Shown here piece after piece: positions 1 through 37,134 of a stretch of DNA of 37,462 bases. Source of the stretch: Pseudomonadota bacterium (GTDB taxonomy: Bacteria; SZUA-182; DTGQ01). A program made the position numbers and the translations under genes. The stretch covers positions 1 to 37,462 of the forward strand of contig JAUWIR010000001.1 of assembly GCA_030605265.1 (NCBI GenBank). The letters run 5' to 3'. Under the pieces are notes generated by a model. That model was not told the DNA's origin and did no database searches. It saw nothing but the letters and a program-made list of their open reading frames with translations. Within the stretch, counting starts at the first letter, position 1. The number at the start of each line of letters is the position of its first letter.

Positions 1-62
1 ATGTATTTCCTGCTCTACACATTATTTGGATGTAACTTTTAAAAAATAAGGGGAAAAATATC

Positions 63-345
63 ATGGAAAAAAAAATCGCTATCGGCATTGGAAATTACCT
101 TAGGCAAGATGATGGAATCGGCCCTCGAGTAATTGAAGAAATCGGCTTGCGAAATCTAAACATCGGGTTTGATATTGAAGATATTGCTACAGACGGGCTC
201 AGGCTTTTTAAACATTTTACTCCGAAAACAGAGAAAATCGTCATTATTGACTCAGCTTACATGGGCCAAAAACCGGGGAACTATAATGCTCTTTGCCCCA
301 CATGCAGTGACTTCCAAGAAAACCCTGACCCAAATCAGTAAATAG
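63..345 (+). pseudogene. Ni-Fe hydrogenase maturation endopeptidase (HyaD/HybD/HoxW family), frameshifted and 3'-truncated
   Basis: MEKKIAIGIGNYLRQDDGIGPRV... matches the GxGNxxxxDDGxG start of the family, and VIIDSAYMGQKPG matches the D-A..PG block. The ORF stops at 92 aa, whereas the family is about 150-165 aa. The His-containing C-terminal half is absent. A second frame from the CCGGGG run (273-278) reads PGTIMLF...TQISK and stops at 343-345. Confidence 0.55.
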
Positions 346-497
346 TAATTGAAATTAATGAATAATTCAGGTTATGATAACTCTTCCTTTCTATTTGGTG
401 TGCAATTATATTTTCAGTTTACAATTATTCCATGCTCTAAAAATTTTAGGAGATTTAATTTTCTTCGAAGTATATATTTACAAGGGAGTTTTAAAAC

Positions 498-1064
498 TTG
501 AAAATCAAGGTTATTGGAAACAGCATGGCAGGGCTGTTTCTAAACGGGAAAGTATTTAAGGTTCATATAAACTCGGCGGACTTTGACCTAGAGATTGGAA
601 GGGTAATCATTTTAAAAAAGGAGGGAATTCAAGGCTATTCTTTCAGGCAAGCAAAATCGGCCTTCAGAGCTGGGGAAAAAGAAGGAAGAAAAATCCCCGA
701 GCTAATGGAACATTTTTTATTAATACATAGGATTGTAGCCAAATTTAACCTGCAAGGTCGACTTTGCTTATGGGAAAAGGGTGATAACGACCGCTTTCCC
801 AAGGCATGTAAGCTGGAAAATGTTTTAGGGATAGTTACTGATATTGAAGATCATCCAGAGCTTATTACAAAATTGCAGCCTGATTTATGGAGAAAAAGAA
901 ATCGAAAATTATTAAAATTTTATAATATAGTTGGGAAAATATTTGTGGTGATAGAGGGGAGGGAAGGGAATAAAAGGCGGGGATTATTGCAGAAGATACA
1001 ACAAAAAGGTTTTTGGTCTATATTTTATTTTGTTTGTTCCTTGTTTGACTTGAAGGGCAAATAG
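498..1064 (+). CDS. soluble S26B/SipW-like (S24/S26 clan) serine peptidase; candidate leader peptidase
   Basis: TTG start with AGGGAG upstream. VIGNSMAGLF (Ser box), LLIHRIV (His box) and WEKGDND (GDN box) resemble ER/archaeal-type signal peptidases. There is no N-terminal TM segment. The 3' end overlaps the convergent kinase gene by 47 nt. Confidence 0.5.
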   Translation: MKIKVIGNSMAGLFLNGKVFKVHINSADFDLEIGRVIILKKEGIQGYSFRQAKSAFRAGEKEGRKIPELMEHFLLIHRIVAKFNLQGRLCLWEKGDNDRFPKACKLENVLGIVTDIEDHPELITKLQPDLWRKRNRKLLKFYNIVGKIFVVIEGREGNKRRGLLQKIQQKGFWSIFYFVCSLFDLKGK

Positions 1065-1989
1065 CCTGCCAAAAATCCTTATTTTTTTGAAATTTTAATT
1101 CATAAAAAGATACTTCATTAATAAAATCCAGGCTGCTTTGAAATACTCGCTTAGTTAAAAAAGGCTCGCGGGCAAAATATAAAACATTTTCCATCAACCT
1201 GCACAAAGATTCTTTTTTCGACAGCCTCCTTAAGTCTAATCCGGCGCTTTGCTTTAGTTGATAAATCCCTTGAATAGGAGAATAAAAATTTCCTCCTTTT
1301 ATTTCCTGCTCCCCCCAAAAAGGAGTGCTGTAAAGAAGGTAGCGATTTTCAACCTTTCTGATCAGTGAAATTTCATCACTTAAGACTGTATATTTGGTTG
1401 AATGCCTGGCAATGGTAGATTTTCCCGCTCCGGATTTGCCCATAAAAATGTAACCAAGCCCATCCTTTACTACAGAGGCGGCATGCAGTAAGAAGCCTCC
1501 TTCCTGAACCAAAATGAGAGAATAAAGAATTCGTAAAAAAGAATCAAAACTATAAATAGCTGCTCGGTTGATAACCTGGGCAACCCGGCTGTTTAGATTA
1601 ACCTCTCCTTCAAGGTCAGGCCTTCGAATAAAAAATCGATCGTCCCGGTAAGTCACATCTATCCATAACTCTTCATCGAGCGCCTGTTTTCGATTGCCCT
1701 CCTCGAATTGGCGTACATTCATATTTAGTTGCATGATGAGACGATCACGGCATGGAGTGTTTACACCCCTTTCATCTGACGGCACATACCGGCAAGAAGC
1801 AGTAAAGGGTTGATACTTCTCCATGATAAGTTGCATAAATGATGAATCGGCGGATCCTATGGAAATAGGGATACCGCCGATTTGTAATTGAATTGTATAA
1901 GAATTTTCATTTTTTTTATGCGGGGTTTCAGCCTCTATGCCTTTGTGCCTCTGTGCCTCTGTGTTTTCTTTTAACTTGAAATTATTCAT
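1018..1989 (-). CDS. HPr-kinase-related P-loop kinase (like the Ser kinases of lasso/RiPP clusters)
   Basis: GGFLLHAASVVKDGLGYIFMGKSGAGKST resembles the catalytic C-terminal domain of HPr kinase/phosphorylase. Length is 323 aa. The first ~30 codons (MNNFKLKENTEAQRHKGIEAETPHKKNENS) are read out of repeat copy 1901-1979, so the true start is uncertain. Confidence 0.7.
   Translation of the reverse strand: MNNFKLKENTEAQRHKGIEAETPHKKNENSYTIQLQIGGIPISIGSADSSFMQLIMEKYQPFTASCRYVPSDERGVNTPCRDRLIMQLNMNVRQFEEGNRKQALDEELWIDVTYRDDRFFIRRPDLEGEVNLNSRVAQVINRAAIYSFDSFLRILYSLILVQEGGFLLHAASVVKDGLGYIFMGKSGAGKSTIARHSTKYTVLSDEISLIRKVENRYLLYSTPFWGEQEIKGGNFYSPIQGIYQLKQSAGLDLRRLSKKESLCRLMENVLYFAREPFLTKRVFQSSLDFINEVSFYELKFQKNKDFWQAICPSSQTRNKQNKI
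1901..1979 (-). repeat. dispersed repeat family A, copy 1: core GAATTTTCATTTTTTTTATGCGG plus four tandem GCCTYTRT octamers plus TTTTAACTTGA
   Basis: Near-identical over about 80 bp to 5243-5321, and in reverse orientation to 34481-34545. Confidence 0.85.
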
Positions 1990-2012
1990 ATGAATCTATT
2001 TTAAAAGCATTA

Positions 2013-2076
2013 GAATTTTCATTTTATTTATGCTGCCTATCAGCTTAATTTAAAAGCATTGGAATTTTCGGCATCC
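2013..2076 (-). repeat. family A variant copy: same GAATTTTCATTTTATTTATGC core followed by ATCAGCTT words
   Basis: Shares the ~22-nt core with 1901, 2260, 5243 and 34525-34545. It is flanked by the direct repeat TTTAAAAGCATT(A/G)GAATTTTC at 2000-2020 and 2049-2069. Confidence 0.65.
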
Positions 2077-2106
2077 ATCATTAGTCAGTTTATACTCTTT
2101 TAATTC

Positions 2107-2172
2107 ACCATGAAGAACATGAAGAGCATGAAGGTTTATTTATTCCTTCTTTTCCTTCATGTCCTTCATGGT
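2107..2172. repeat. imperfect hairpin built from CATGAAG / CTTCATG words
   Basis: Left arm is ACCATGAAGAACATGAAGAGCATGAAGG and right arm is CCTTCTTTTCCTTCATGTCCTTCATGGT. A sister element lies at 5135-5182. Confidence 0.75.
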
Positions 2173-2259
2173 AAAAAAATAAAAAGCAAAAAAATACCAG
2201 ATTTCTTTCGGAAATAAAATAAAAGTGTATACTACTTTTCGTTCTTTATGAAAGATGCC

Positions 2260-2307
2260 GAATTTTCATTTTATTTATGCTGCTCATCAGCTTATCAGCT
2301 TAATTTA
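2260..2307 (-). repeat. family A variant copy: core plus two ATCAGCTT words
   Basis: GAATTTTCATTTTATTTATGCTGCTCATCAGCTTATCAGCTTAATTTA. Its end provides the TAA stop of the small ORF 2305-2469. Confidence 0.65.
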
Positions 2308-2469
2308 ACTTACACCATGTAATCCTCTTGGGAAAGCATATTTTATACAGGCATCTCCCTTACAGCAAGACAGGGCAAGGGTTTCGAAAACCTCTTCGGA
2401 AACAACCTTCGGCTTTTCATATAGTTTCTTAGTCTTGACAATTTTTTTCTCTATTTTCTTCTTTTCCAT
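2305..2469 (-). CDS. unannotated 54-aa ORF, putative RiPP (lasso-like) precursor peptide: MEKKKIEKKIVKTKKLYEKPKVVSEEVFETLALSCCKGDACIKYAFPRGLHGVS
   Basis: I translated this by hand; it falls below the 60-aa cut-off of the ORF track. The ATG lies 5 nt after the rSAM/SPASM stop, with AGGAGG (2479-2484) 9 nt upstream. It has a Lys-rich leader with YEKPKV (YxxPxL/V), Thr at -2 before Ala32, a 23-aa core with 3 Cys and Asp at core position 8, and a C-terminal Ser. Confidence 0.55.
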   Translation of the reverse strand: MEKKKIEKKIVKTKKLYEKPKVVSEEVFETLALSCCKGDACIKYAFPRGLHGVS

Positions 2470-2474
2470 GTCTT

Positions 2475-3530
2475 TTATCCTCCTATTAATGTTTTATTTC
2501 CTTTTGCCTTAGCCAGCCAGCAAGCGGCGCTGGAATGACCCAACAAGTCGCCGTCTTCAAGATAAGCTAAACCGGGGCATCGAGCACACCAGGATAAATA
2601 ATCACAATTTTTACAACCATGAACATTCTTCATCCGCATTTGGCGAATGTTTAGCATATCCGGTGAATTGTGCCAGATCCAGTTAAAATCGTGATCTCTC
2701 AGATTGCCGGAATTAATGGGCAGTTGCACACAAGGATTGACCTCGCCTTCAGGGGAAATATAACAAATATTATGGCCGGCGCTACAAAGGACGTCATCGT
2801 ATATTTCAGTTATTAAACAAGAAATATTTTCCGGCCTTTCACCTTTTTCTCCACCATAAAAAACCGGATCTTGCAAAACCATTTGCAAATCTTCCTGTGC
2901 TATGCGGTAATTAAGAGTATCTTTATTTCCATCATCCCGCATTGTAATCACCGGATCAAAGGCGCAGCCGGCCCCAAGATCAGTGGCTAAATCATACACT
3001 TTACGATATTCCTTAATATTTTGTCGCATGACGGGACATTTTATCTTTACTGAAATCCCTTTTTCCCGCATTTGCCGAATATTTTTTACAGTCTTTTCCC
3101 AGGATCCGGGAACGCCGGTAATGCCATCGTGTATCTTGGCATTGGCAGCATATAAACTCACGTGTACCTCTTGAAGATGCAGCTTCTGAAAGGCATCTAT
3201 TTCCTTTGTCCCCAACAGGGTCCCATTAGTAAAAACCTTCACTGCAAAATCAAGCGTGCGAGCATAGCGGATAATATCTATTAAATCCTCTCGCAACAAG
3301 ACTTCTCCACCGGATAGGGTCAAGACCAAGCAGCCTGCTTCGGCCAATTGCTCTAAAATCCGATTAATTTCCTCTAAATTTAATTCATGATCAGGAGTTT
3401 TACCTATCCTCCTCTCTCCATCCCTTTTTTCAACACAACAATGAATACATCGAAGATTACATCTCCTAGTCAAATTAATCTGGACGGCAAAGGGGATTTT
3501 TTTCTCCATGGTATGGGCTAAGATATCCAT
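2475..3530 (-). CDS. radical SAM / SPASM-domain peptide-modifying enzyme
   Basis: CNLRCIHC (CxxxCxxC) lies near the N-terminus, followed by GGEVLL. The C-terminal Cys-rich block CSAGHNICYISPEGEVNPC ... CKNCDYLSWCARC is typical of SPASM/twitch auxiliary-cluster domains. Confidence 0.9.
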   Translation of the reverse strand: MDILAHTMEKKIPFAVQINLTRRCNLRCIHCCVEKRDGERRIGKTPDHELNLEEINRILEQLAEAGCLVLTLSGGEVLLREDLIDIIRYARTLDFAVKVFTNGTLLGTKEIDAFQKLHLQEVHVSLYAANAKIHDGITGVPGSWEKTVKNIRQMREKGISVKIKCPVMRQNIKEYRKVYDLATDLGAGCAFDPVITMRDDGNKDTLNYRIAQEDLQMVLQDPVFYGGEKGERPENISCLITEIYDDVLCSAGHNICYISPEGEVNPCVQLPINSGNLRDHDFNWIWHNSPDMLNIRQMRMKNVHGCKNCDYLSWCARCPGLAYLEDGDLLGHSSAACWLAKAKGNKTLIGG

Positions 3531-3539
3531 TTGCTTTGA

Positions 3540-3839
3540 TTAATCCTTTTCTTCTGTCCTATTATCTTGCAGAATCAGCATTCCCTTTGACAATAACTCC
3601 TTCACAAAAGCCTGGCAATCCGTCCTGATTTTTTCATAGTCAACCATTTTATGCTCGTCATGGATAATTGCGGCCATATCTTCAATACTTCTTACTCCAT
3701 CACTTAACTCCCAAATCATTGATCCAATTTCATTGAGGGTATGCAGGGTATTGTCTTCCAAGGTCATGATCACTGCCTGGCCGTCAATTATCCTTGATGC
3801 TGTTTTTTCATTTCTATTTATGTACTTATTATCAATCAT
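3540..3839 (-). CDS. PqqD-family protein (RiPP recognition element)
   Basis: 99 aa. IIDGQAVIMTLEDNTLHTLNEIGSMIWELSDGVRSIEDMAAII follows the PqqD pattern. It sits immediately upstream of the rSAM/SPASM gene, and its start overlaps the upstream gene by 8 nt. Confidence 0.8.
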   Translation of the reverse strand: MIDNKYINRNEKTASRIIDGQAVIMTLEDNTLHTLNEIGSMIWELSDGVRSIEDMAAIIHDEHKMVDYEKIRTDCQAFVKELLSKGMLILQDNRTEEKD

Positions 3840-5073
3840 AAAGAAATCCCCCCTTATTTTCTGTGCATTGCAGCCTCATGATCATTCCTGTTAAAACCAC
3901 GGCAACAAAGGTATTAGCCATAAAGTGAAAATTAAAATCTACCAAGCAATGGATTGAGATAGCTATTAGGCCTCCCATAATTCCCAGCACTAAACTTCGC
4001 AATGTCCTGCTGGGCGCAGTCAAATAACACTTTATACTTTCCTTGAAAATTACTATCATCATCCAAAGAATAAGCAGAAAAGATACCATTCCCCACTCTG
4101 ACATCAATTGCAAATATTCATTATGCGCATAAGTATCTCTAATTTTTTTCTTCAAGTATTTTTCATATACATAGGGAAATGTTCCCGGGCCAGTGCCAAG
4201 AACCGGATAATCATGAATAAGGTCAAGGGTTGCTTGCCAAATTGGCACCCTGCCATTGAATGATTCTATTTCTTTTCTCCTTTTTTGAACAAAAAAGGAA
4301 CTTAGTTGATGATGCACATTATTAAAGCCAAATCCAGTAATAAATAGAAGACACACTAATGCTATTAATAATATCGGAACGAAACTCTTGCCGAGATGTT
4401 GAAATCTATATTTTTTCAAATACATTAATCCCAGTACCATTAAGGCACAAAGTAAAGAAATCCAACCTCCTCTTGAAAGTGTCAGGACAAAGGCTACGAG
4501 CATCATGCAAAGGCCATAGGCAAGAAAAACCTTCTTACCAATATCCATTTCCAAAATTAAAAGAACTATTGCTATTGGGATAATCATCATCAGGAAAGCG
4601 GCCAGATGGTTCGAGTTTGCAAAGGTAGAGGCAAGTTCGTAGCCCAGTCTTCCTTGTGAAGCCCCCAAATATTTAATCAATCCCCAAACAGACAGAAAGG
4701 CCCCTACAGCCATTAGACTGGAGACTAATAGAAAGAGCTGATTTTTTGTTCGTAATTTATTTACCACTGCATAATATACGATAATGTAATCAATAAGTTT
4801 CCAAAAGGCGCCAAAGCTTACAGCAGGCTTTATGGAAAATATGGAAGCAAGGAGAGTTAAACCCACAAAAACCACAATAGGATAATCCAGGGGAGTAGAT
4901 ATAAAATGGCTTTTTTTCTCTACCAGTATCTCCCCAATCCATAATGATAAAAGAATTAAAACCAGGGTATGAACAACACATACGGCCAGCCCTTTTTCTG
5001 TTCCTTTTGCTAATGGAGTGAAAAAGAGGATGCTGATCAGCAGACAGAAAATAAGATTATCGATCTTTTTCAA
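3832..5073 (-). CDS. O-antigen ligase / Wzy_C-family polytopic membrane protein
   Basis: About 10-12 hydrophobic segments. LSRGGWISL and YAHNEYLQLMSEWGMVSF resemble the Wzy_C signature. TTG start. It is translationally coupled to the PqqD gene. Confidence 0.8.
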   Translation of the reverse strand: MKKIDNLIFCLLISILFFTPLAKGTEKGLAVCVVHTLVLILLSLWIGEILVEKKSHFISTPLDYPIVVFVGLTLLASIFSIKPAVSFGAFWKLIDYIIVYYAVVNKLRTKNQLFLLVSSLMAVGAFLSVWGLIKYLGASQGRLGYELASTFANSNHLAAFLMMIIPIAIVLLILEMDIGKKVFLAYGLCMMLVAFVLTLSRGGWISLLCALMVLGLMYLKKYRFQHLGKSFVPILLIALVCLLFITGFGFNNVHHQLSSFFVQKRRKEIESFNGRVPIWQATLDLIHDYPVLGTGPGTFPYVYEKYLKKKIRDTYAHNEYLQLMSEWGMVSFLLILWMMIVIFKESIKCYLTAPSRTLRSLVLGIMGGLIAISIHCLVDFNFHFMANTFVAVVLTGMIMRLQCTENKGGFLYD

Positions 5074-5134
5074 CCGGCTTTCTCTTTGGTTATCTACTAT
5101 GAATGGCCAAGAATTTAACTTTTTATTTTAATCA

Positions 5135-5182
5135 AGAGCATGAAGTCTGATGAAATCTTCATGTCATTCATGCCCTTCATGG
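5135..5182. repeat. hairpin of CATGAAG / CTTCATG words (sister of 2107-2172)
   Basis: AGAGCATGAAGTCTGATGAAATCTTCATGTCATTCATGCCCTTCATGG. It lies between the nucleotidyltransferase stop and the Wzy_C start, next to family A copy 2. Confidence 0.7.
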
Positions 5183-5242
5183 TAATTCCTAAAATTTTAA
5201 AGTTTAAAACTGAGCAATTTTTTATATGCCTTGAACGTTCAG

Positions 5243-5321
5243 GAATTTTCATTTTTTTTATGCGGAGTTCCAGCCTTTGTGCCTCTGTGCCTTTGTGCCT
5301 CTGTGCCTTCTTTTAACTTGA
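5243..5321 (-). repeat. dispersed repeat family A, copy 2
   Basis: GAATTTTCATTTTTTTTATGCGGAGTTCCAGCCTTTGTGCCTCTGTGCCTTTGTGCCTCTGTGCCTTCTTTTAACTTGA. It encodes the last ~20 codons and the stop of ORF 5258-6508. Confidence 0.85.
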
Positions 5322-6508
5322 GGTCTTTTTAAAAGTCGAACAATTGAAAAAAATGGGTTTAATATATACAGAAAATACACCATCCCTGAACTCGGATTAA
5401 TCGAATATCGATAAGCGATAGCTTCACTAGAAGGGAAAAGTGTCCTCAATGCAGATTTCACTATCTGACTAAATCGATCATTCAAAAGGAGAATAAGAAA
5501 AAACTGCCTTAAGTCTGCACTATACGTGCCTCGAATAATTTCTTTTTTGCCTAGAAATTTTTTTAACATCTCAATCCTTTTCATTCGTTCAAACGGCAGA
5601 GTTACTCTCAGAAATTGGCCATTATGGTTAAAAAATCTATTAACCATGAATAGGGCAAAAGAAAAATTACTCCAAAGGCCTATTTTTTTAAGAGACTTTT
5701 CAACATAAAGCCAATCCATCCTCTCTTGATTCAGGACGAGAAATTGATAAAGATCCAGGAATTGTTTTAAATGTATATACTTAGAAGCATGGAGGTCTAT
5801 GATTAAATATAATAATGAATCCTCAATAGAAAAGGAACGAAATCTTTCTCCTTTGAGCTGAATCTCTCTGGCGTTACGCCACCATTGCTTTAAAGGGATA
5901 TGGTAATCTCTTGGTCTGGCTAAGCCCCAATGTAAATCAACGGAAACTCTCATTCCTCTGGGGAGTCGTTTATAAAATTGAAGGTTCCAGCTGTTTTCCG
6001 GGGAATGGTCAGTATCAATATAAGGCACTGGTTCATAGTTTTGGCTTTTGAGTAAATTTTTAGCTGAATCCAGCTCCTCTAATTTCACTAAAAAATCAAG
6101 ATCATTAAAAGACCGTAATTTTTCATCTGGGTATAATTGCCTAGCCCGGTATATTCCTTTAAGAGATATAACATCAATTCCTTTTTTGAAAAATTGAGCC
6201 ATTAAATGATCAAATTCGGAGGATAGAATAATAATTCTGGCCAGATGACTGTGCCATAATTTCTGGAACCTTGATATTACCTCCCTGGGCGTGTTTAACC
6301 AATTTAATCTATTCACTGCATTATAGAGAAGAGGAAAAACATCGTGGAAAAGGGCAAGCTTGATTAAATAATTCCAGTTAACTTTTTCCCGACTCAGAAT
6401 ATCCTTAATATGTCGGTTGGTATCATCTTCCTCATCGGGCGTAATTTGTGGCGTAATTAAGGCAAGGAAAAGCCTTTCTTCAAGGGTAAGATCCAAAAGT
6501 TTATTCAT
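5258..6508 (-). CDS. nucleotidyltransferase-fold protein of the PF14907-like 'uncharacterised nucleotidyltransferase' family
   Basis: SFNDLDFLV and VDLHWGLARP motifs are present. Size is ~400 aa. The gene lies next to PqqD and HprK-like genes, as in lasso tailoring sets. The C-terminal tail KRRHRGTKAQRHKGWNSA derives from repeat copy 2. Confidence 0.65.
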   Translation of the reverse strand: MNKLLDLTLEERLFLALITPQITPDEEDDTNRHIKDILSREKVNWNYLIKLALFHDVFPLLYNAVNRLNWLNTPREVISRFQKLWHSHLARIIILSSEFDHLMAQFFKKGIDVISLKGIYRARQLYPDEKLRSFNDLDFLVKLEELDSAKNLLKSQNYEPVPYIDTDHSPENSWNLQFYKRLPRGMRVSVDLHWGLARPRDYHIPLKQWWRNAREIQLKGERFRSFSIEDSLLYLIIDLHASKYIHLKQFLDLYQFLVLNQERMDWLYVEKSLKKIGLWSNFSFALFMVNRFFNHNGQFLRVTLPFERMKRIEMLKKFLGKKEIIRGTYSADLRQFFLILLLNDRFSQIVKSALRTLFPSSEAIAYRYSINPSSGMVYFLYILNPFFSIVRLLKRPQVKRRHRGTKAQRHKGWNSA

Positions 6509-6512
6509 TGGA

Positions 6513-18027: not shown

Positions 18028-18866
18028 TCATATTTGGCATACAAGATTAGGATAACCCCTCTCTTTCATCATTGAAAAACTTATTTTTTCAATTTCTCTA
18101 ACCATATTAGTTTCCATTTCTAATTGCCACTTTCCTTTATTATTTCGCATTATTGATGTTGTAGATTTTGCATCTCCTAAATTTTCACTTGGTTTGTGTA
18201 AAACAGCCATATTGCTTTCATATTTGACACCAATAAAATCACAAACAGATTTAAGTATACTTGGAGGATTTTCAATCAAGGACTCATAATTAAGCTCATA
18301 GTAATCCTCTTTCAAGTAATTAAAAGCATCCGATCGGCATTTCCGAATAGCATCAGTCCACATTTGAGCAGATCTGAAAGGGTTTTTATTCCAGGCTTTC
18401 ATATTGGAAAGGCAATGATCGCGAACATCTCTGACAATGTGGATAAACAAGGCTTTTGGAAATAATTCTTTGAGTAATTTTATATTTTGCATGTAATGAG
18501 GCGACTTATCTCCCCATATACTTTTACCCTCACATTCTGCGTATAATCTAAAAAAAGTACTTATTACCCCTGCGTATGAAAAAGTATCTATCTTTTCAAA
18601 CCAATATCTTTTATTAACTATATGAGAATATAATGGACCTTTTTTATCATTTTAAAAAATTCAACTTTGCTAATAAATTGGAAAAATGAATTAAAGTTTT
18701 CAGGAACACTTAAATCTCCAAATTTCGATACAGGATCGGCTAAGTGAGGAATGAAACTCGACTCCCAGAAAGGGATCGAAATTTTTGAGTGCTGAGAAAG
18801 AATTGTACGTAATAGTTTTGTGCCCGATCTTGGTCGCCCTACTATAAAAATTGGTCCTTTGAACAT
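18028..18866 (-). pseudogene. sulfotransferase (PAPS-dependent type) split by a frameshift
   Basis: The N-terminal ORF carries IVGRPRSGTKLL (5'-PSB loop). The downstream ORF, extended upstream in frame, reads ...YWFEKIDTFSYAG...WGDKSPHYMQNIKLLKELFPKALFIHIVRDVRDHCLS (3'-PB region). The frames switch within about 18620-18655, which contains a T6 run at 18640-18645. Confidence 0.75.
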
Positions 18867-23545: not shown

Positions 23546-24570
23546 TTATTTTAATAATTTTATGGTATCTCCAATTCCTACTAAACTTGGTATTCTTGGA
23601 TTTTCAATGAAATCAAGTAAACGCCTGCCAACATACTTTATTCGTAAATTACTGTTTCCAGCAGAAGTGATTTTATTAATTTTTTTTAAATAGTTATCAG
23701 ATAAATATCTATGAAAATATTTTCTTTTAACTTTTATAGTATTGTCTGTAAAATAATACGGTTTTAATAATTTTTTATGAGTAGATAGATCATAAACTAA
23801 TCCAGCAGAACATTTATTCCATATCCTCTGTTTATATTTGTATATCACAAAGGTATATCTGTTAAATTAAAATTTCTGACAGCATTTAGATCTGGAAATA
23901 TAAAATTACCGAGTCCATAGGCAATTATACTCTGGTTATAATCTTCGACTGGTTGTATAGTATGGGCATGATGGCCTATAATAAGGTCGACACCTAAAGT
24001 TGCAATTTTTCTTGCAAGCCTAATTTACTCTTTTGTAGGATAATTGCAATGCTCTATCCCCCAATGTAACTGAACAAATATTTTATCAACCTTCCCGTTT
24101 AAAAATTTGGTATCTTTTTTTATCAATTCATAATCTATCGGTGCCGGACCAAATTTTAAATCTTTTACCTTAGAAATTTGATCATAATAATGCTTATAGC
24201 AATATCCCAGAATTCCTATTTTCAAATTATCCATATCGAAGATAACTGGGTTATTGTAATTGCCGGCAGACTCACCTGCACCAAAATATTTTATATTATT
24301 TTCTTCAAGAAAATTAATTGTATCAATAAAACCATCATTGCCGTAGTCCATTATATGGTTGTTGGCAAGTGAGACCGCCAGAGGTGGTTGTTTGAAAGTG
24401 CCCTTTAAGAATTTTCCTGAAGATTTTAGTACTACATTACCTTCTATCGGAGTATTACATTCTGTTAAAGGAGCTTCGAGATTACAAATCAAAGGGTATT
24501 TTTCCTATGGTATTTTATAAATTTTGTCTAAATAAACGTCTCCTATGAATAAAATCTTATTAAGTCCCAT
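23546..24570 (-). pseudogene. CapA-family (PGA_cap, metallophosphatase-like) capsule synthesis protein with two in-frame stops and a frameshift
   Basis: ATG at 24570 overlaps the flippase stop. The translation reads MGLNKILFIGDVYLDKIYKIP-TAG(24505-24507)-EKYPLICNLEAPLT...LANNHIMDYG...YPTKE-TAA(24025-24027)-IRLARKIATLGVDLIIGHHAH...GLGNFIFP. It stops at 23845-23847, and a different frame continues to 23546. Confidence 0.7.
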
Positions 24571-34480: not shown

Positions 34481-34545
34481 CAGGTTCAAAAAAATAGGCA
34501 CAAAGGCACAGAGGTTGTAACTCCGCATAAATAAAATGAAAATTC
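34481..34545 (+). repeat. dispersed repeat family A, copy 3 (opposite orientation, two octamers)
   Basis: CAGGTTCAAAAAAATAGGCACAAAGGCACAGAGGTTGTAACTCCGCATAAATAAAATGAAAATTC is the reverse complement of the 1901 and 5243 type. Confidence 0.8.
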
Positions 34546-34750: not shown

Positions 34751-35539
34751 TCAACAATACTTCTTTTTAAATCCGATAATGCCAATGATCCCCAAGCCAA
34801 GAAGAAACAAAGCACTTGGCTCTGGAACAGGAGAAGTAGTAGCGCCATCCTTTTCAAAATCCCAATAGTATAGGTCATCAGAATAATCTGAAGTACCAAA
34901 GGGATCATACAAGGAACACCAATAATCAGTAGTGGAGAAAGAGAAACTTTTCGGCACTTCCATTAACTCAGATGAATGCATAATTATTTCTCCTGTGCCG
35001 CCCACAGGGATGGCTGATCCTGTCTGGATATCAGCATCAGATCCAGTCCACCCATAATATTCACCGCGCCAAATATTGTTTAAAACTGTATCTGGTGAAA
35101 GTAAAGGTTGCCAAGAAGTCCCATCCCAGTATTCAGCGTAATTTTGGGATAAACAATCATTAACAGAGACTATATAGCAGCCCGGCTCTCCATTTGGACC
35201 TTCCAGAAGATTAGTTGTCAGGGGAAAACTATCCTCATCATAAACGGGATTTCCCCAATAATCAGTGAATGCTTCAGGGAAAAAACCCAGTACATCTAAA
35301 CCATCGACCCAGCCAAAATTAACAATTATATCATCTGCGTGTAAATCCGCCGGGAACCATATTGCCCATGTCCAGATTGGTAAAGTTTCATTATTATGAA
35401 TAGTATAGGTATAAGTCCAATCTCCACTGCTTCCAGTTATTTCTTCAGTCACCATACTTGTAGCATACGCATTTTGGAAAGTTAAAATTATTACAACCAA
35501 AAGGACAAATATGAAAATTGATCTTACTAGCTCTTTCAT
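34751..35539 (-). CDS. PEP-CTERM sorting-domain secreted protein (exosortase substrate)
   Basis: Signal peptide MKELVRSIFIFVLLVVIILTFQNAYA. The C-terminus SPVPEPSALFLLGLGIIGIIGFKKKYC has VPEP, a TM helix and a basic tail. Confidence 0.9.
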   Translation of the reverse strand: MKELVRSIFIFVLLVVIILTFQNAYATSMVTEEITGSSGDWTYTYTIHNNETLPIWTWAIWFPADLHADDIIVNFGWVDGLDVLGFFPEAFTDYWGNPVYDEDSFPLTTNLLEGPNGEPGCYIVSVNDCLSQNYAEYWDGTSWQPLLSPDTVLNNIWRGEYYGWTGSDADIQTGSAIPVGGTGEIIMHSSELMEVPKSFSFSTTDYWCSLYDPFGTSDYSDDLYYWDFEKDGATTSPVPEPSALFLLGLGIIGIIGFKKKYC

Positions 35540-35949: not shown

Positions 35950-37134
35950 TTACCCAGCCAAACGGGCCCAGAGGACTGCCTCCTTTGTGGCGCTGCAGCC
36001 ATGGCATCCCATACACCCTGCATTATTGGGTGATATATTGTCAATGGAATTTCTTACTAAAATCTCCCCCAGCTCTTGATACAATTGCAAAACAGTATCT
36101 TCTTTTCCTATATAGGAGGGGGAATAATCCCCCAGACCGGGAGCTCCCACCCGGAGCAAAAGAATTGAGGTTAGCACACCAATCCGGGCTGCTCTTTCAA
36201 TCCCTTTTACGGTCACCTCAAGGTCTTCATCAAATCCGATGATGTCGGTTGTAAATACTTTCCCCCGGCCAAAACAGGAAACCGCCATTTCCCAACTTTT
36301 CATATATTCCTCAGGAGAAAAGGCTTGGGCTTTTCCGGGACAGACCATTTGGCGAACATTTTCATCAAAAGATTCTAAAAATATCCCAATAGTATCAGCA
36401 ACCTGACTTAACTCTTTTAAGAGGGTCTGATCGAAAATAGGCTCTATTTGAACATGAATTGATAAATTTGTTTTTTCTTTTAAAAAGGAAGCAAAGGATA
36501 ACAGCTCTTTCCCTGTTTTTTCAGGAGTATCAATGGTCCCGCTGGTTAAGGTAATTGAGCGGATAGAATTGTTGGTAAGGGCTAATTTTAAAAATTTCAA
36601 ATTCATTTTATCAGGTAAGCGTTTGGGAAGATGAAACTTATCGACTAATAATGAAGTAGTGCAAAATTTACACCCTTGATTCTGCTCCAGATGCTTACAC
36701 CCCCGATATAAACACATAGAATAGGTCTGATAAGGATGAAGCTTGGCTTTTACTATTCTGGCGGTTTTTCGGTCAAACCACCCTCCATGCCAATTAAAGG
36801 GCGCTTCCTCTAAAAAAAGGCCATCATCAGTAAACACTATTTTTCTCTTTTTTGGGTCCTCATCAGATTGTTCTTCTGTCCACCATTTCGCAGGTATTGC
36901 ATGTTCAGCCAGATAATGGTCTTTGGGATAAATAACCAGACTGATCTGGCTCTTATAATTCCCGGGTTCCTCCCCTATATAGCAGTTTACTCCCTGCGGA
37001 CCGGCCCCCCCTTGGATGGATTGAAGATGAATCACTGGAACAGATTCATCTTCAAGGACTATTCCTCTAGAAAGTAGCTTAATCCGATCTTTCAGATTTT
37101 TTAATGCCTTCTCTTTATTATTTTTGGCTTTCAA
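35950..37134 (-). CDS. radical-SAM-like Fe-S enzyme with a non-canonical Cys motif
   Basis: CKHLEQNQGCKFC (Cx8CxxC) sits where a TIM-barrel rSAM cluster loop would be. It is followed by alternating beta/alpha-like segments and a C-terminal CMGCHGC. TTG start with AAGGGA upstream. Confidence 0.45.
   Translation of the reverse strand: MKAKNNKEKALKNLKDRIKLLSRGIVLEDESVPVIHLQSIQGGAGPQGVNCYIGEEPGNYKSQISLVIYPKDHYLAEHAIPAKWWTEEQSDEDPKKRKIVFTDDGLFLEEAPFNWHGGWFDRKTARIVKAKLHPYQTYSMCLYRGCKHLEQNQGCKFCTTSLLVDKFHLPKRLPDKMNLKFLKLALTNNSIRSITLTSGTIDTPEKTGKELLSFASFLKEKTNLSIHVQIEPIFDQTLLKELSQVADTIGIFLESFDENVRQMVCPGKAQAFSPEEYMKSWEMAVSCFGRGKVFTTDIIGFDEDLEVTVKGIERAARIGVLTSILLLRVGAPGLGDYSPSYIGKEDTVLQLYQELGEILVRNSIDNISPNNAGCMGCHGCSATKEAVLWARLAG

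Follow-up and report, generated by a model that had tools for sequence, protein, structure and literature searches.

Near one end of a 37,462-nucleotide stretch of DNA from a Pseudomonadota bacterium (assembly GCA_030605265.1, contig JAUWIR010000001.1; hereafter the window) lies a small cassette of genes centered on an open reading frame (ORF) of 54 codons, which a first-pass annotation had read as the precursor gene of a lasso peptide. The ORF is a genuine conserved gene under purifying selection. It quite probably encodes the precursor of a widespread ribosomal-peptide cassette, which comprises a radical SAM/SPASM enzyme, a PqqD-type recognition element for peptides made by the ribosome and modified after translation (RiPP recognition element, RRE), a ScmC-like predicted kinase, an S26-like peptidase and, sometimes, a PF14907 protein. 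It is not a lasso peptide.

Along the minus strand, the low-coordinate end of the window carries in succession the genes of the PF14907 protein, a Wzy_C membrane protein, PqqD, the radical SAM/SPASM enzyme and the peptide, followed by a spacer of 315 nt and the ScmC-like gene (Table 1). The peptidase gene, on the plus strand, runs towards the ScmC-like gene and overlaps it by 47 nt at the 3' ends. All five partner types (radical SAM/SPASM, ScmC-like, S26-like, PqqD and PF14907) are present in the window. The peptidase and ScmC-like genes are likewise convergent in two related loci, L010 and L013, there without overlap.

Table 1. Coordinates of the peptide cassette and associated features in the window
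Feature	Position	Strand	Basis or remark
Precursor peptide gene	2305-2469	-	Translation, homologs, codon-position bias, at least 2,728 clusters in the family
Putative leader, residues 1-32	2374-2469	-	
Putative core, residues 33-54	2308-2373	-	
Shine-Dalgarno AGGAGG	2479-2484	-	9 nt upstream of the ATG; read from the sequence
Y17-E-K-P20-K-V22 codons, Y-x-x-P-x-hydrophobic; predicted RRE (PqqD)-binding strand	2404-2421	-	Family conservation; motif that of lasso leaders (PMC10368454)
F28-E-T-L-A-L33 codons, near-invariant junction motif; candidate protease site	2371-2388	-	Conservation; putative cleavage at T-x-A/L or A-L-[AS]/C (slash, cut), proposed from the S26-type partner
C35, C36 ... C41 codons, conserved core Cys	2347-2367	-	First Cys in 233/233
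Ser54 codon, predicted C-terminal phospho-acceptor	2308-2310	-	Last residue Ser in 223/233, Thr in 5/233
Radical SAM/SPASM maturase	2475-3530	-	Pfam Radical_SAM 2e-25, SPASM 1e-9
PqqD-family RRE (peptide chaperone)	3540-3839	-	Pfam PqqD 2e-13
ScmC-like (PF27840) P-loop protein, PEPCK/HPr-kinase fold; predicted peptide Ser kinase	1018-1989	-	Precomputed PF27840, AlphaFold2 model, Foldseek
S24/S26 (SEC11/archaeal signal-peptidase-like) serine peptidase; predicted leader peptidase	498-1064	+	NCBIfam sigpep_I_arch 5.7e-6
PF14907 (NTP_transf_5) nucleotidyltransferase-fold protein; possible phospho-Ser decorator	5258-6508	-	Pfam 5e-47; near the cassette in 5/14 loci
Wzy_C (O-antigen-ligase-like) membrane protein, between PF14907 and PqqD	3832-5073	-	Pfam 5e-25; link to the peptide uncertain
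Strong RNA hairpin of the 315-nt spacer that separates the peptide and ScmC-like genes	2104-2175	-	Inverted repeat; dG -42.2 kcal/mol, z -7.4, lacks a U-tract; belongs to a dispersed element
Dispersed element copies	1901-1924, 2013-2036, 2260-2283, 5243-5266, 34522-34545		Last copy in the opposite orientation

The precursor gene and its family

The ORF, read from 2469 to 2305, consists of 54 codons and a stop and translates as MEKKKIEKKIVKTKKLYEKPKVVSEEVFETLALSCCKGDACIKYAFPRGLHGVS. The stop codon of the radical SAM/SPASM gene (TAA, 2477-2475) and the ATG of the peptide gene (2469-2467) are 5 nt apart, and the AGGAGG of the peptide gene falls within the final Gly-Gly codons of the radical SAM gene. 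The position of the ORF, its translation, the 5-nt gap and the location of AGGAGG had all been given in the first-pass annotation and were reproduced from the sequence. The residues which it had singled out, Y17, P20, V22, T30, A32, D39 (position 8 of a core counted from Ala32), C35, C36 and C41 (positions 4, 5 and 10 of that core) and S54, are located as claimed. An identical protein is already present as an unnamed gene product in an NCBI/ENA-derived collection.

Nine close homologs with 57-67% identity preserve the reading frame. In pairwise comparisons over the last 40 codons, the differences at codon positions 1/2/3 are 4/6/25, 8/6/22 and 9/9/27, with a nonsynonymous divergence (dN) of 0.12-0.22 and a saturated synonymous divergence (dS). 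Since close homologs keep the frame and third-position changes dominate, the ORF is more than a chance occurrence; an intact frame in relatives and a synonymous-biased pattern of substitution were both what the first-pass annotation had expected of a real gene. The ORF is short, is embedded in AT-rich DNA and is followed just downstream by a strong hairpin and repeats, features that could also belong to a chance ORF or to a conserved non-coding RNA element between the radical SAM and ScmC-like genes. The likelihood of such an origin is practically nil in view of the third-position bias with saturated dS, the thousands of protein homologs with an invariant residue pattern in lineages of 36-75% GC, and the canonical ribosome-binding site. 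No Rfam match was found at E ≤ 0.1 in positions 1-7000 of the window, and a consensus scan detected no intrinsic terminator after the peptide gene.

A word-indexed search returned two relatives only. With a three-sequence profile, an exhaustive HMMER search gave 119 proteins at E ≤ 1e-3, almost all of 41-79 aa, and a profile made from 86 of these led, again in a word-indexed search, to 2,728 clusters at the 90% identity level. The family size of at least 2,728 protein clusters is a lower bound; its members are mostly of ~50-60 aa, within a range of 41-110 aa. Every cluster is named “hypothetical protein” or is unnamed, and none contains a Pfam domain. No NCBIfam model matches any of the 86 peptide members, and neither Pfam nor NCBIfam (June 2026) models this peptide.

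The family consensus is (K)PYxKPx[FVI]xSExVFET[LM]AL[AS]C(G)K...C...S. Conservation was counted over 233 family members. The most conserved part is the leader motif Y-x-x-P-x-hydrophobic, with Tyr in 232 members, Pro in all 233 and Phe, Val or Ile two residues past the Pro in 226. In the junction motif F-E-T-[ML]-A-L, Phe is found in 224 members, Glu in 227, Thr in 217, Ala in 228 and Leu in 225. The first Cys is invariant; at least two Cys are present in 232 members, exactly two in 201 and three in 30. The last residue is Ser in 96% of the members. In the biggest subgroup, a 20-residue core is nearly fixed as L[AS]CGK[IV]xPTQxQCRFNRKNS. The window clade represents a three-Cys variant, in which the tail [YF]G[FL]PRG[LM]H[GA]VS is kept in 10/10 members.

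The ORF is a real small gene that resembles a RiPP precursor, and to this extent the first-pass annotation is borne out. Among the residues whose conservation it had proposed to test, those of the Y-x-x-P-x-hydrophobic motif, the Thr, the first Cys and the terminal Ser are indeed conserved, but Asp at core position 8 is not, and three Cys occur in the window clade and in 30 of the 233 members overall. In locus L026, two family peptide genes stand in tandem (1-402 and 467-628) downstream of a radical SAM fragment, and hence some loci encode more than one precursor.

Partner proteins and their linkage

The radical SAM/SPASM protein of the window contains the motif C24-x3-C28-x2-C31 (CX3CX2C) and a complete SPASM Cys set (C-x12-G-x4-C...C-x2-C-x5-C-x2-C...C). 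The PDB sequences nearest to it are those of PqqE, SkfB, SuiB and CteB, all of them peptide maturases, with PqqE being the best match. The window thus combines a CX3CX2C motif and a full SPASM domain with a short Cys-bearing precursor gene beside the maturase and the RRE, which are the features of a radical SAM/SPASM RiPP locus. A role in defence was considered for the enzyme and rejected, PADLOC having given only generic radical SAM similarity to pVip. A contig scan with the same protein returned only distant radical SAM proteins of 23-30% identity, from Lentisphaerota and Methanobacteria.

The top NCBIfam match of the window PqqD is lasso_PqqD_Bac, below its cutoff. Its nearest solved relatives are 9x8z_B (“PqqD family protein”), the lasso B1 protein TbiB1 (5v1u) and 9x90_B (“lasso peptide biosynthesis PqqD family chaperone”), and not the PqqD of PQQ (pyrroloquinoline quinone) synthesis.

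The ScmC-like protein was modeled with AlphaFold2 from a 56-sequence alignment, with a predicted local distance difference test score (pLDDT) of 88.6. A Foldseek search of the PDB with this model found only phosphoenolpyruvate carboxykinases (PEPCK; E about 1e-8) and HPr kinase/phosphorylases (HprK; E 6e-6 to 3e-4). Its invariant residues are H169, the P-loop G-x-S-G-A-G-K190-S-T and D205-E206. Lasso kinases carry a His-Lys-Asp-Asp motif (PMC9266682), which the invariant His, Lys, Asp and Glu of the ScmC-like protein resemble at the level of the motif. Residues 1-30, which homologs lack, have a pLDDT of 44-66, and a copy of a repeat element overlaps the corresponding roughly 30 codons at the 5' end (window 1900-1989); the true start probably lies downstream of about 1900. 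Proteins of the ScmC family are named “hypothetical protein” in every source of the sequence collection.

In the S24/S26-like peptidase, the motifs GxSM, HR and GD (S9, H77-R78 and G95-D96) are invariant among 8 family members. The family profile matches SEC11C (4e-8) and SEC11A (1e-7) over the motifs of the catalytic Ser, His and Asp, and these matches rank above LexA and bacterial signal peptidase I; the NCBIfam scores of the peptidases, 26-36 bits, are below the cutoff of 51.85. In distant loci the peptidase gene directly follows the peptide gene. The Wzy_C protein matches NCBIfam PEP_O_lig_1 below the cutoff, and a Wzy_C gene is also found near the cassette in L013 and L030.

Linkage was counted in 14 independent related loci whose flanks extend for 3 kb or more in each direction and which span GC contents of 36-75%. 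The peptide gene is accompanied by genes for a radical SAM/SPASM enzyme, a ScmC-like protein and an S26-like peptidase at all 14 loci, by PqqD at 12 and by PF14907 at five, and by a lasso B2 protease or C cyclase at none. Close relatives, whose radical SAM proteins are 60-71% identical to that of the window, keep the order PqqD, radical SAM, peptide, ScmC-like together with the convergent peptidase. Distant relatives have a compact operon of peptide, S24/S26-like peptidase, ScmC (PF27840), PqqD and radical SAM/SPASM genes (L030 on a 5.0-Mb contig, L031, L032, L035, L036 and L038), which in L031 and L032 is preceded by ABC-2 transporter genes. A variant order, PqqD, methyltransferase, ScmC-like, radical SAM, peptide, peptidase, is seen in L019, L021 and L022. 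In L037, tblastn recovers the full cassette (ScmC-like, PqqD, radical SAM, peptide and peptidase) at 7854-10539, where frameshifts have left the genes uncalled and the gene calls fragmented; this locus looks like a frameshift-rich long-read assembly, in which gene lists alone would give a false orphan peptide.

Where the window has its repeat-filled spacer, relatives have large secreted or repeat proteins adjoining the peptide gene (L010 2219-5716, L013 8488-11937, L017 5071-7908, L033 6252-9953, L001 320-1675 and 2120-3421, L002 2144-2836). In close relatives the peptide gene is often separated from the ScmC-like gene by one for a large secreted protein (L002, L010, L013). The neighbor in L013, of roughly 1,150 aa, contains CHB_HEX_C, Fn3_assoc and Pur_ac_phosph_N domains, and those in L001 and L002 carry a 'TYTYTIxN...IWxW' motif; L001 has in addition a protein with a PEP-CTERM-like tail. 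These large secreted neighbors may be targets of the peptide system or function together with it. In the high-GC clade, the peptide and peptidase genes are followed by a conserved protein of 395-402 aa without a Pfam family (L019 8581-9768, L021 8536-9744, L022 8537-9724), at the place where other clades sometimes have PF14907. An assignment of this gene to PF14907 was rejected for want of a Pfam family, and it was excluded from the linkage count.

The lasso reading and a proposed route of maturation

The definition of lasso peptides applied here and their YxxPxL leader motif are taken from PMC10368454. The proposal that the ORF encodes a leader of the RRE-binding type stands: the Tyr, the Pro and the hydrophobic residue are nearly invariant, and the cognate PqqD is closest to lasso B1 proteins (TbiB1, lasso_PqqD_Bac), so that binding is predicted. 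The terminal Ser also agrees with its proposed role as a kinase target, being accompanied by an HPr-kinase-fold protein at all 14 loci, and its phosphorylation is predicted. Thr30 and Ala32 are placed as claimed and the Thr is conserved, but the site need not be a lasso cut, as Thr and Ala may fit positions -3 and -1 of a signal-peptidase site equally well. With a cut before Ala32, the Tyr would sit at -15, versus -17 in canonical lasso leaders (PMC10368454).

The classification as a lasso precursor itself fails. Neither an Asn-synthetase-like lasso cyclase (C) nor a transglutaminase-like Cys protease (B/B2) was found among the window ORFs scanned with Pfam or in the Pfam-annotated loci L022 and L030-L038, where an S26/SEC11-like Ser peptidase is linked instead. 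The Asp at core position 8, which had been put forward as the macrolactam acceptor, is Val or Asn in eight of the nine closest homologs and Asp only in L012, and Asp or Glu occurs at core positions 7-9 in just 38 of 233 family members (16%). The lasso reading is rejected because the cyclase and the B2 protease are absent and Asp8 is not conserved. A version of it, in which the leader is cut after Leu31, a macrolactam is formed between Ala32 and Asp39 and the B2 protease and C cyclase are encoded elsewhere, could draw on the Y-x-x-P-x-V motif, the Thr two residues before Ala32, the lasso B1 type of the RRE, and the HprK-like kinase, PF14907 protein and terminal Ser, as in the paeninodin and pseudomycoidin clusters (PMC9266682). 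It is highly improbable, since the window and the 14 related loci, among them loci on contigs of 2.0, 2.4, 3.1 and 5.0 Mb, contain neither an Asn_synthase-like nor a transglutaminase-like gene, and the places of the class-defining enzymes are taken by the radical SAM enzyme and the S26-like peptidase; the substitutions of Asp39 and the spacing of the Tyr from the proposed cut speak against it as well.

The cassette nevertheless has much in common with the clusters of kinase-tailored lasso peptides (paeninodin PadeA/K, ThcoK, SyanK, pseudomycoidin PsmK/PsmN, BsfK), namely a B1/PqqD-type RRE, a Y-x-x-P-x-hydrophobic leader, a Thr near the junction, a predicted kinase of the HPr-kinase fold, PF14907 and a conserved C-terminal Ser, the residue of the linear precursor that the kinase of lasso systems acts on. 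Unlike these clusters, it has no cyclase, no B2 Cys protease and no conserved Asp/Glu acceptor, while its constant partners are the radical SAM/SPASM enzyme and the S26/SEC11-like peptidase, and its core bears a conserved Cys pair.

The SynChlorMet (SCM) cassette (TIGR04248-04251), comprising ScmC, ScmD (a PqqD) and two radical SAM/SPASM proteins, ScmE and ScmF, similarly shares with the window a PF27840 protein (best NCBIfam match TIGR04249), a PqqD homolog and a PqqE-like radical SAM/SPASM enzyme. The scores are, however, far under the equivalog cutoffs (40.2 bits versus 125 for ScmC, 28.2 versus 100 for ScmD and 103.5 versus 400 for ScmE; L030 and L032 likewise), and the present cassette has one radical SAM/SPASM gene rather than two, an additional S26-like peptidase and a strictly linked candidate precursor. 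To our knowledge, the SCM description lists no known precursor. The GeoRSP (TIGR04302/04303) and HPr-rel-A (TIGR04352/04353/04355) systems also combine a PqqD “peptide chaperone” with a radical SAM/SPASM enzyme and/or an HprK-related kinase, and weak matches to all of them were obtained; every match in the window, L030, L032 and L022 is far below cutoff. With sactipeptides and ranthipeptides (maturases of the SkfB, AlbA, CteB and PapB type) the cassette shares a radical SAM/SPASM enzyme and an RRE acting on a short Cys core, SkfB and CteB being among the nearest solved relatives. It differs from them in having only two or three Cys, no family-wide acceptor, kinase and S26-like partners and an unusually conserved core, and its thioether cross-links are a prediction only. 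The cassette is closest to the SCM cassette and the kinase-tailored lasso clusters, and is a member of neither. Its general kind, radical SAM/SPASM plus RRE, is known; the precursor family is unmodeled, and the set of accessory proteins is unusual in comprising a predicted kinase of the HprK fold, an S26 peptidase and, at some loci, PF14907.

A leader-guided, radical SAM-modified and C-terminally phosphorylated peptide is the best model for the product, with a chemistry that we infer from its partners. The Lys-rich N-terminus and the Y17-x-x-P20-x-V22 strand would dock on PqqD as in lasso B1/leader complexes, judging from the motif and the type of RRE, and PqqD would present the peptide to the radical SAM/SPASM enzyme, which would modify the Cys-containing core. 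The most likely products are Cys-derived thioether cross-links of the sacti or ranthi type. This is the weakest and least constrained step, for which thioethers are the default expectation with SPASM-plus-RRE enzymes acting on Cys-containing cores.

If PadeK, ThcoK and PsmK are a guide, the ScmC-like enzyme, with its HPr-kinase fold, would phosphorylate Ser54 while the precursor is still linear. HprK-like lasso kinases act on the linear precursor and phosphorylate its “extremely conserved” C-terminal Ser (PMC9266682), and a B1 RRE speeds up a lasso Ser kinase (PMC9266682, PMC10368454). Phosphorylation of Ser54 is the best supported of the predicted steps, because a terminal Ser conserved at 96% strictly co-occurs with an HprK-fold protein. 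The PF14907 protein may next add a sugar or nucleotide to the phosphate of Ser54, as does PsmN, a PF14907-like protein that adds hexoses to phospho-Ser (PMC9266682). The SEC11-like Ser/His/Asp peptidase would then cut off the leader at the F-E-T-[LM]-A-L-[AS]-C junction, with small residues at -3 and -1; the two candidate sites, after T-x-A or after A-L-[AS], would both suit an enzyme of the signal-peptidase type.

Several observations weigh against this model. It is built on sequence, fold and linkage, from which the peptide product and its modifications are predicted. None of the cassette proteins from the window, L022, L030 and L032 reaches a curated NCBIfam cutoff of the SCM, GeoRSP, HPr-rel-A, lasso, mycofactocin or PQQ systems, so that functional transfer rests on fold and superfamily. 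Foldseek gives the ScmC-like model modest TM-scores against PEPCK and HprK (0.2-0.46); sequence profiles match this protein at the P-loop only, and comparison with PDB sequences gave just P-loop and PEPCK matches. PqqD was not found within the flanks examined at two of the 14 loci. No thioether acceptor residue is conserved across the family, and conservation of the core to this degree is unusual among antibiotic-type RiPPs, so that its role may rather be cofactor-like or structural.

The C-terminal residue of MftA, the mycofactocin precursor, is invariant, as is nearly so for the peptides described here. The peptide could accordingly be imagined as the precursor of a peptide-derived cofactor or small molecule of the PQQ or mycofactocin type, a few residues of which are modified by the radical SAM/SPASM enzyme and PqqD and excised by peptidases, the product being decorated by the kinase and a nucleotidyltransferase. 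A small peptide, a PqqD-like chaperone, a SPASM enzyme and a peptidase make up the architecture of the PQQ and mycofactocin systems, mycofactocin and PqqE models are among the full-length matches of the radical SAM protein, and strong conservation of the core across lineages of 36-75% GC is atypical for antibiotics. Such a product is nonetheless unlikely: all matches are far below the curated cutoffs, no PqqB/C-like or MftD/E/F-like downstream genes were seen in the annotated contexts of L030-L038, and two conserved Cys located 7-13 residues from the C-terminus in a core conserved over its whole length of roughly 20 aa suggest that the product is a peptide.

Surrounding locus and significance

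A Pfam scan shows that the window as a whole is a roughly 37-kb exopolysaccharide (EPS) locus of the PEP-CTERM type, with many GT1 and GT4 glycosyltransferases, heparinase-II/III-like proteins, methyltransferases, Wzz/GNVR, Poly_export, Bac_transf and flippase-like proteins and a PEP-CTERM protein. At its far end, a further radical SAM protein of 394 aa that lacks a SPASM match (35950-37134), encoded upstream of a 262-aa PEP-CTERM protein (34751-35539), appears unrelated to the peptide cassette. Three ORFs cover their profiles only in part, those of a hydrogenase maturation protease (63-341, 92 aa, profile positions 3-73 of 145), a sulfotransferase (18028-18492, 154 aa, positions 113-215 of 216) and a PGA_cap protein (24025-24492, 155 aa, positions 43-208 of 255); they look truncated and may be pseudogenes or the result of frameshifts.

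An intergenic element whose core reads CCGCATAAA[T/A]AAAATGAAAATTC on the gene-sense strand is dispersed in five copies, versus zero expected by chance, and three of the copies are preceded by tandem 9-mers, AGAGGCACA or AAGGCACA. The cassette is bracketed by copies: one follows the PF14907 stop, one comes directly behind the peptide stop, one precedes the ScmC-like gene and one falls within the annotated 5' end of the latter. The element is a candidate promoter, operator or miniature inverted-repeat transposable element. Inverted repeats built of CATGAAG units occur at 2104-2175 and 5156-5181 (6 matches versus 0.06 expected), the second between the PF14907 and Wzy_C genes; the first forms the spacer hairpin, a possible transcript-stabilizing or attenuating element.

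The placement of the cassette bears on whether the peptide takes part in polysaccharide assembly. The Wzy_C-family enzyme TfpO/PilO glycosylates the C-terminal Ser of pilin. By likeness, the peptide might serve as a glycan acceptor or primer of the surrounding pathway, Ser54 or its phosphate receiving sugars from the PF14907 protein or a Wzy_C-type O-oligosaccharyltransferase; the peptide would in this way be tied to EPS assembly. The location of the cassette inside the PEP-CTERM/EPS locus, with Wzy_C between PF14907 and PqqD, would agree with this, as would the GT1/GT4/GT87, PMT_2, Wzy_C, DegT and heptose genes that flank it in L013, L022, L030, L033 and L035 and the transfer of hexoses to phospho-Ser by PsmN (PMC9266682). 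There are, however, no obvious glycan genes beside the operon in L031, L032, L036 and L038, PF14907 and Wzy_C are found in only five and three, respectively, of the 14 loci, and the radical SAM enzyme and the Cys residues are left unexplained. An acceptor role is quite unlikely and would at best be an addition to the model of a radical SAM-modified, C-terminally phosphorylated peptide.

With regard to that model, the conserved core and the occurrence of glycan genes close to the cassette, both in the window and in the same five loci, suggest a physiological, possibly cell-envelope role; these are raw counts, and four loci are without such neighbors. A more speculative and rather doubtful proposal is that of a new hybrid RiPP class, in which a lasso-type module (YxxP leader, B1-type RRE, HPr-kinase-like kinase, PF14907 and C-terminal Ser) has been recombined with a radical SAM/SPASM cross-linker and a signal-peptidase-like protease. 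Its conserved phosphorylated or phosphoglycosylated product would act in envelope or exopolysaccharide biology as a glycan primer, anchor or regulator, and not as an antibiotic. No description of this peptide system was found in the open-access literature searched, an absence that is no proof of novelty.

The lasso claim was wrong, yet the gene is real, and following it up has exposed a very large and coherent peptide family. If the leader, RRE, kinase and terminal-Ser module of phosphorylated lasso peptides is also used outside lasso biosynthesis, RODEO-style scoring that relies on YxxP, Thr(-2), PqqD and the kinase could report lasso clusters where there are none. Should the model be correct, thousands of “hypothetical” genes for peptides of 50-60 aa, in many bacterial lineages of 36-75% GC, would be precursors of one modified-peptide system, and candidate substrates would be gained for the ScmC-family proteins and for a large group of unassigned SPASM enzymes. 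A physiological role for the peptide is hinted at by its strongly conserved core and by the repeated location of the cassette in polysaccharide loci.

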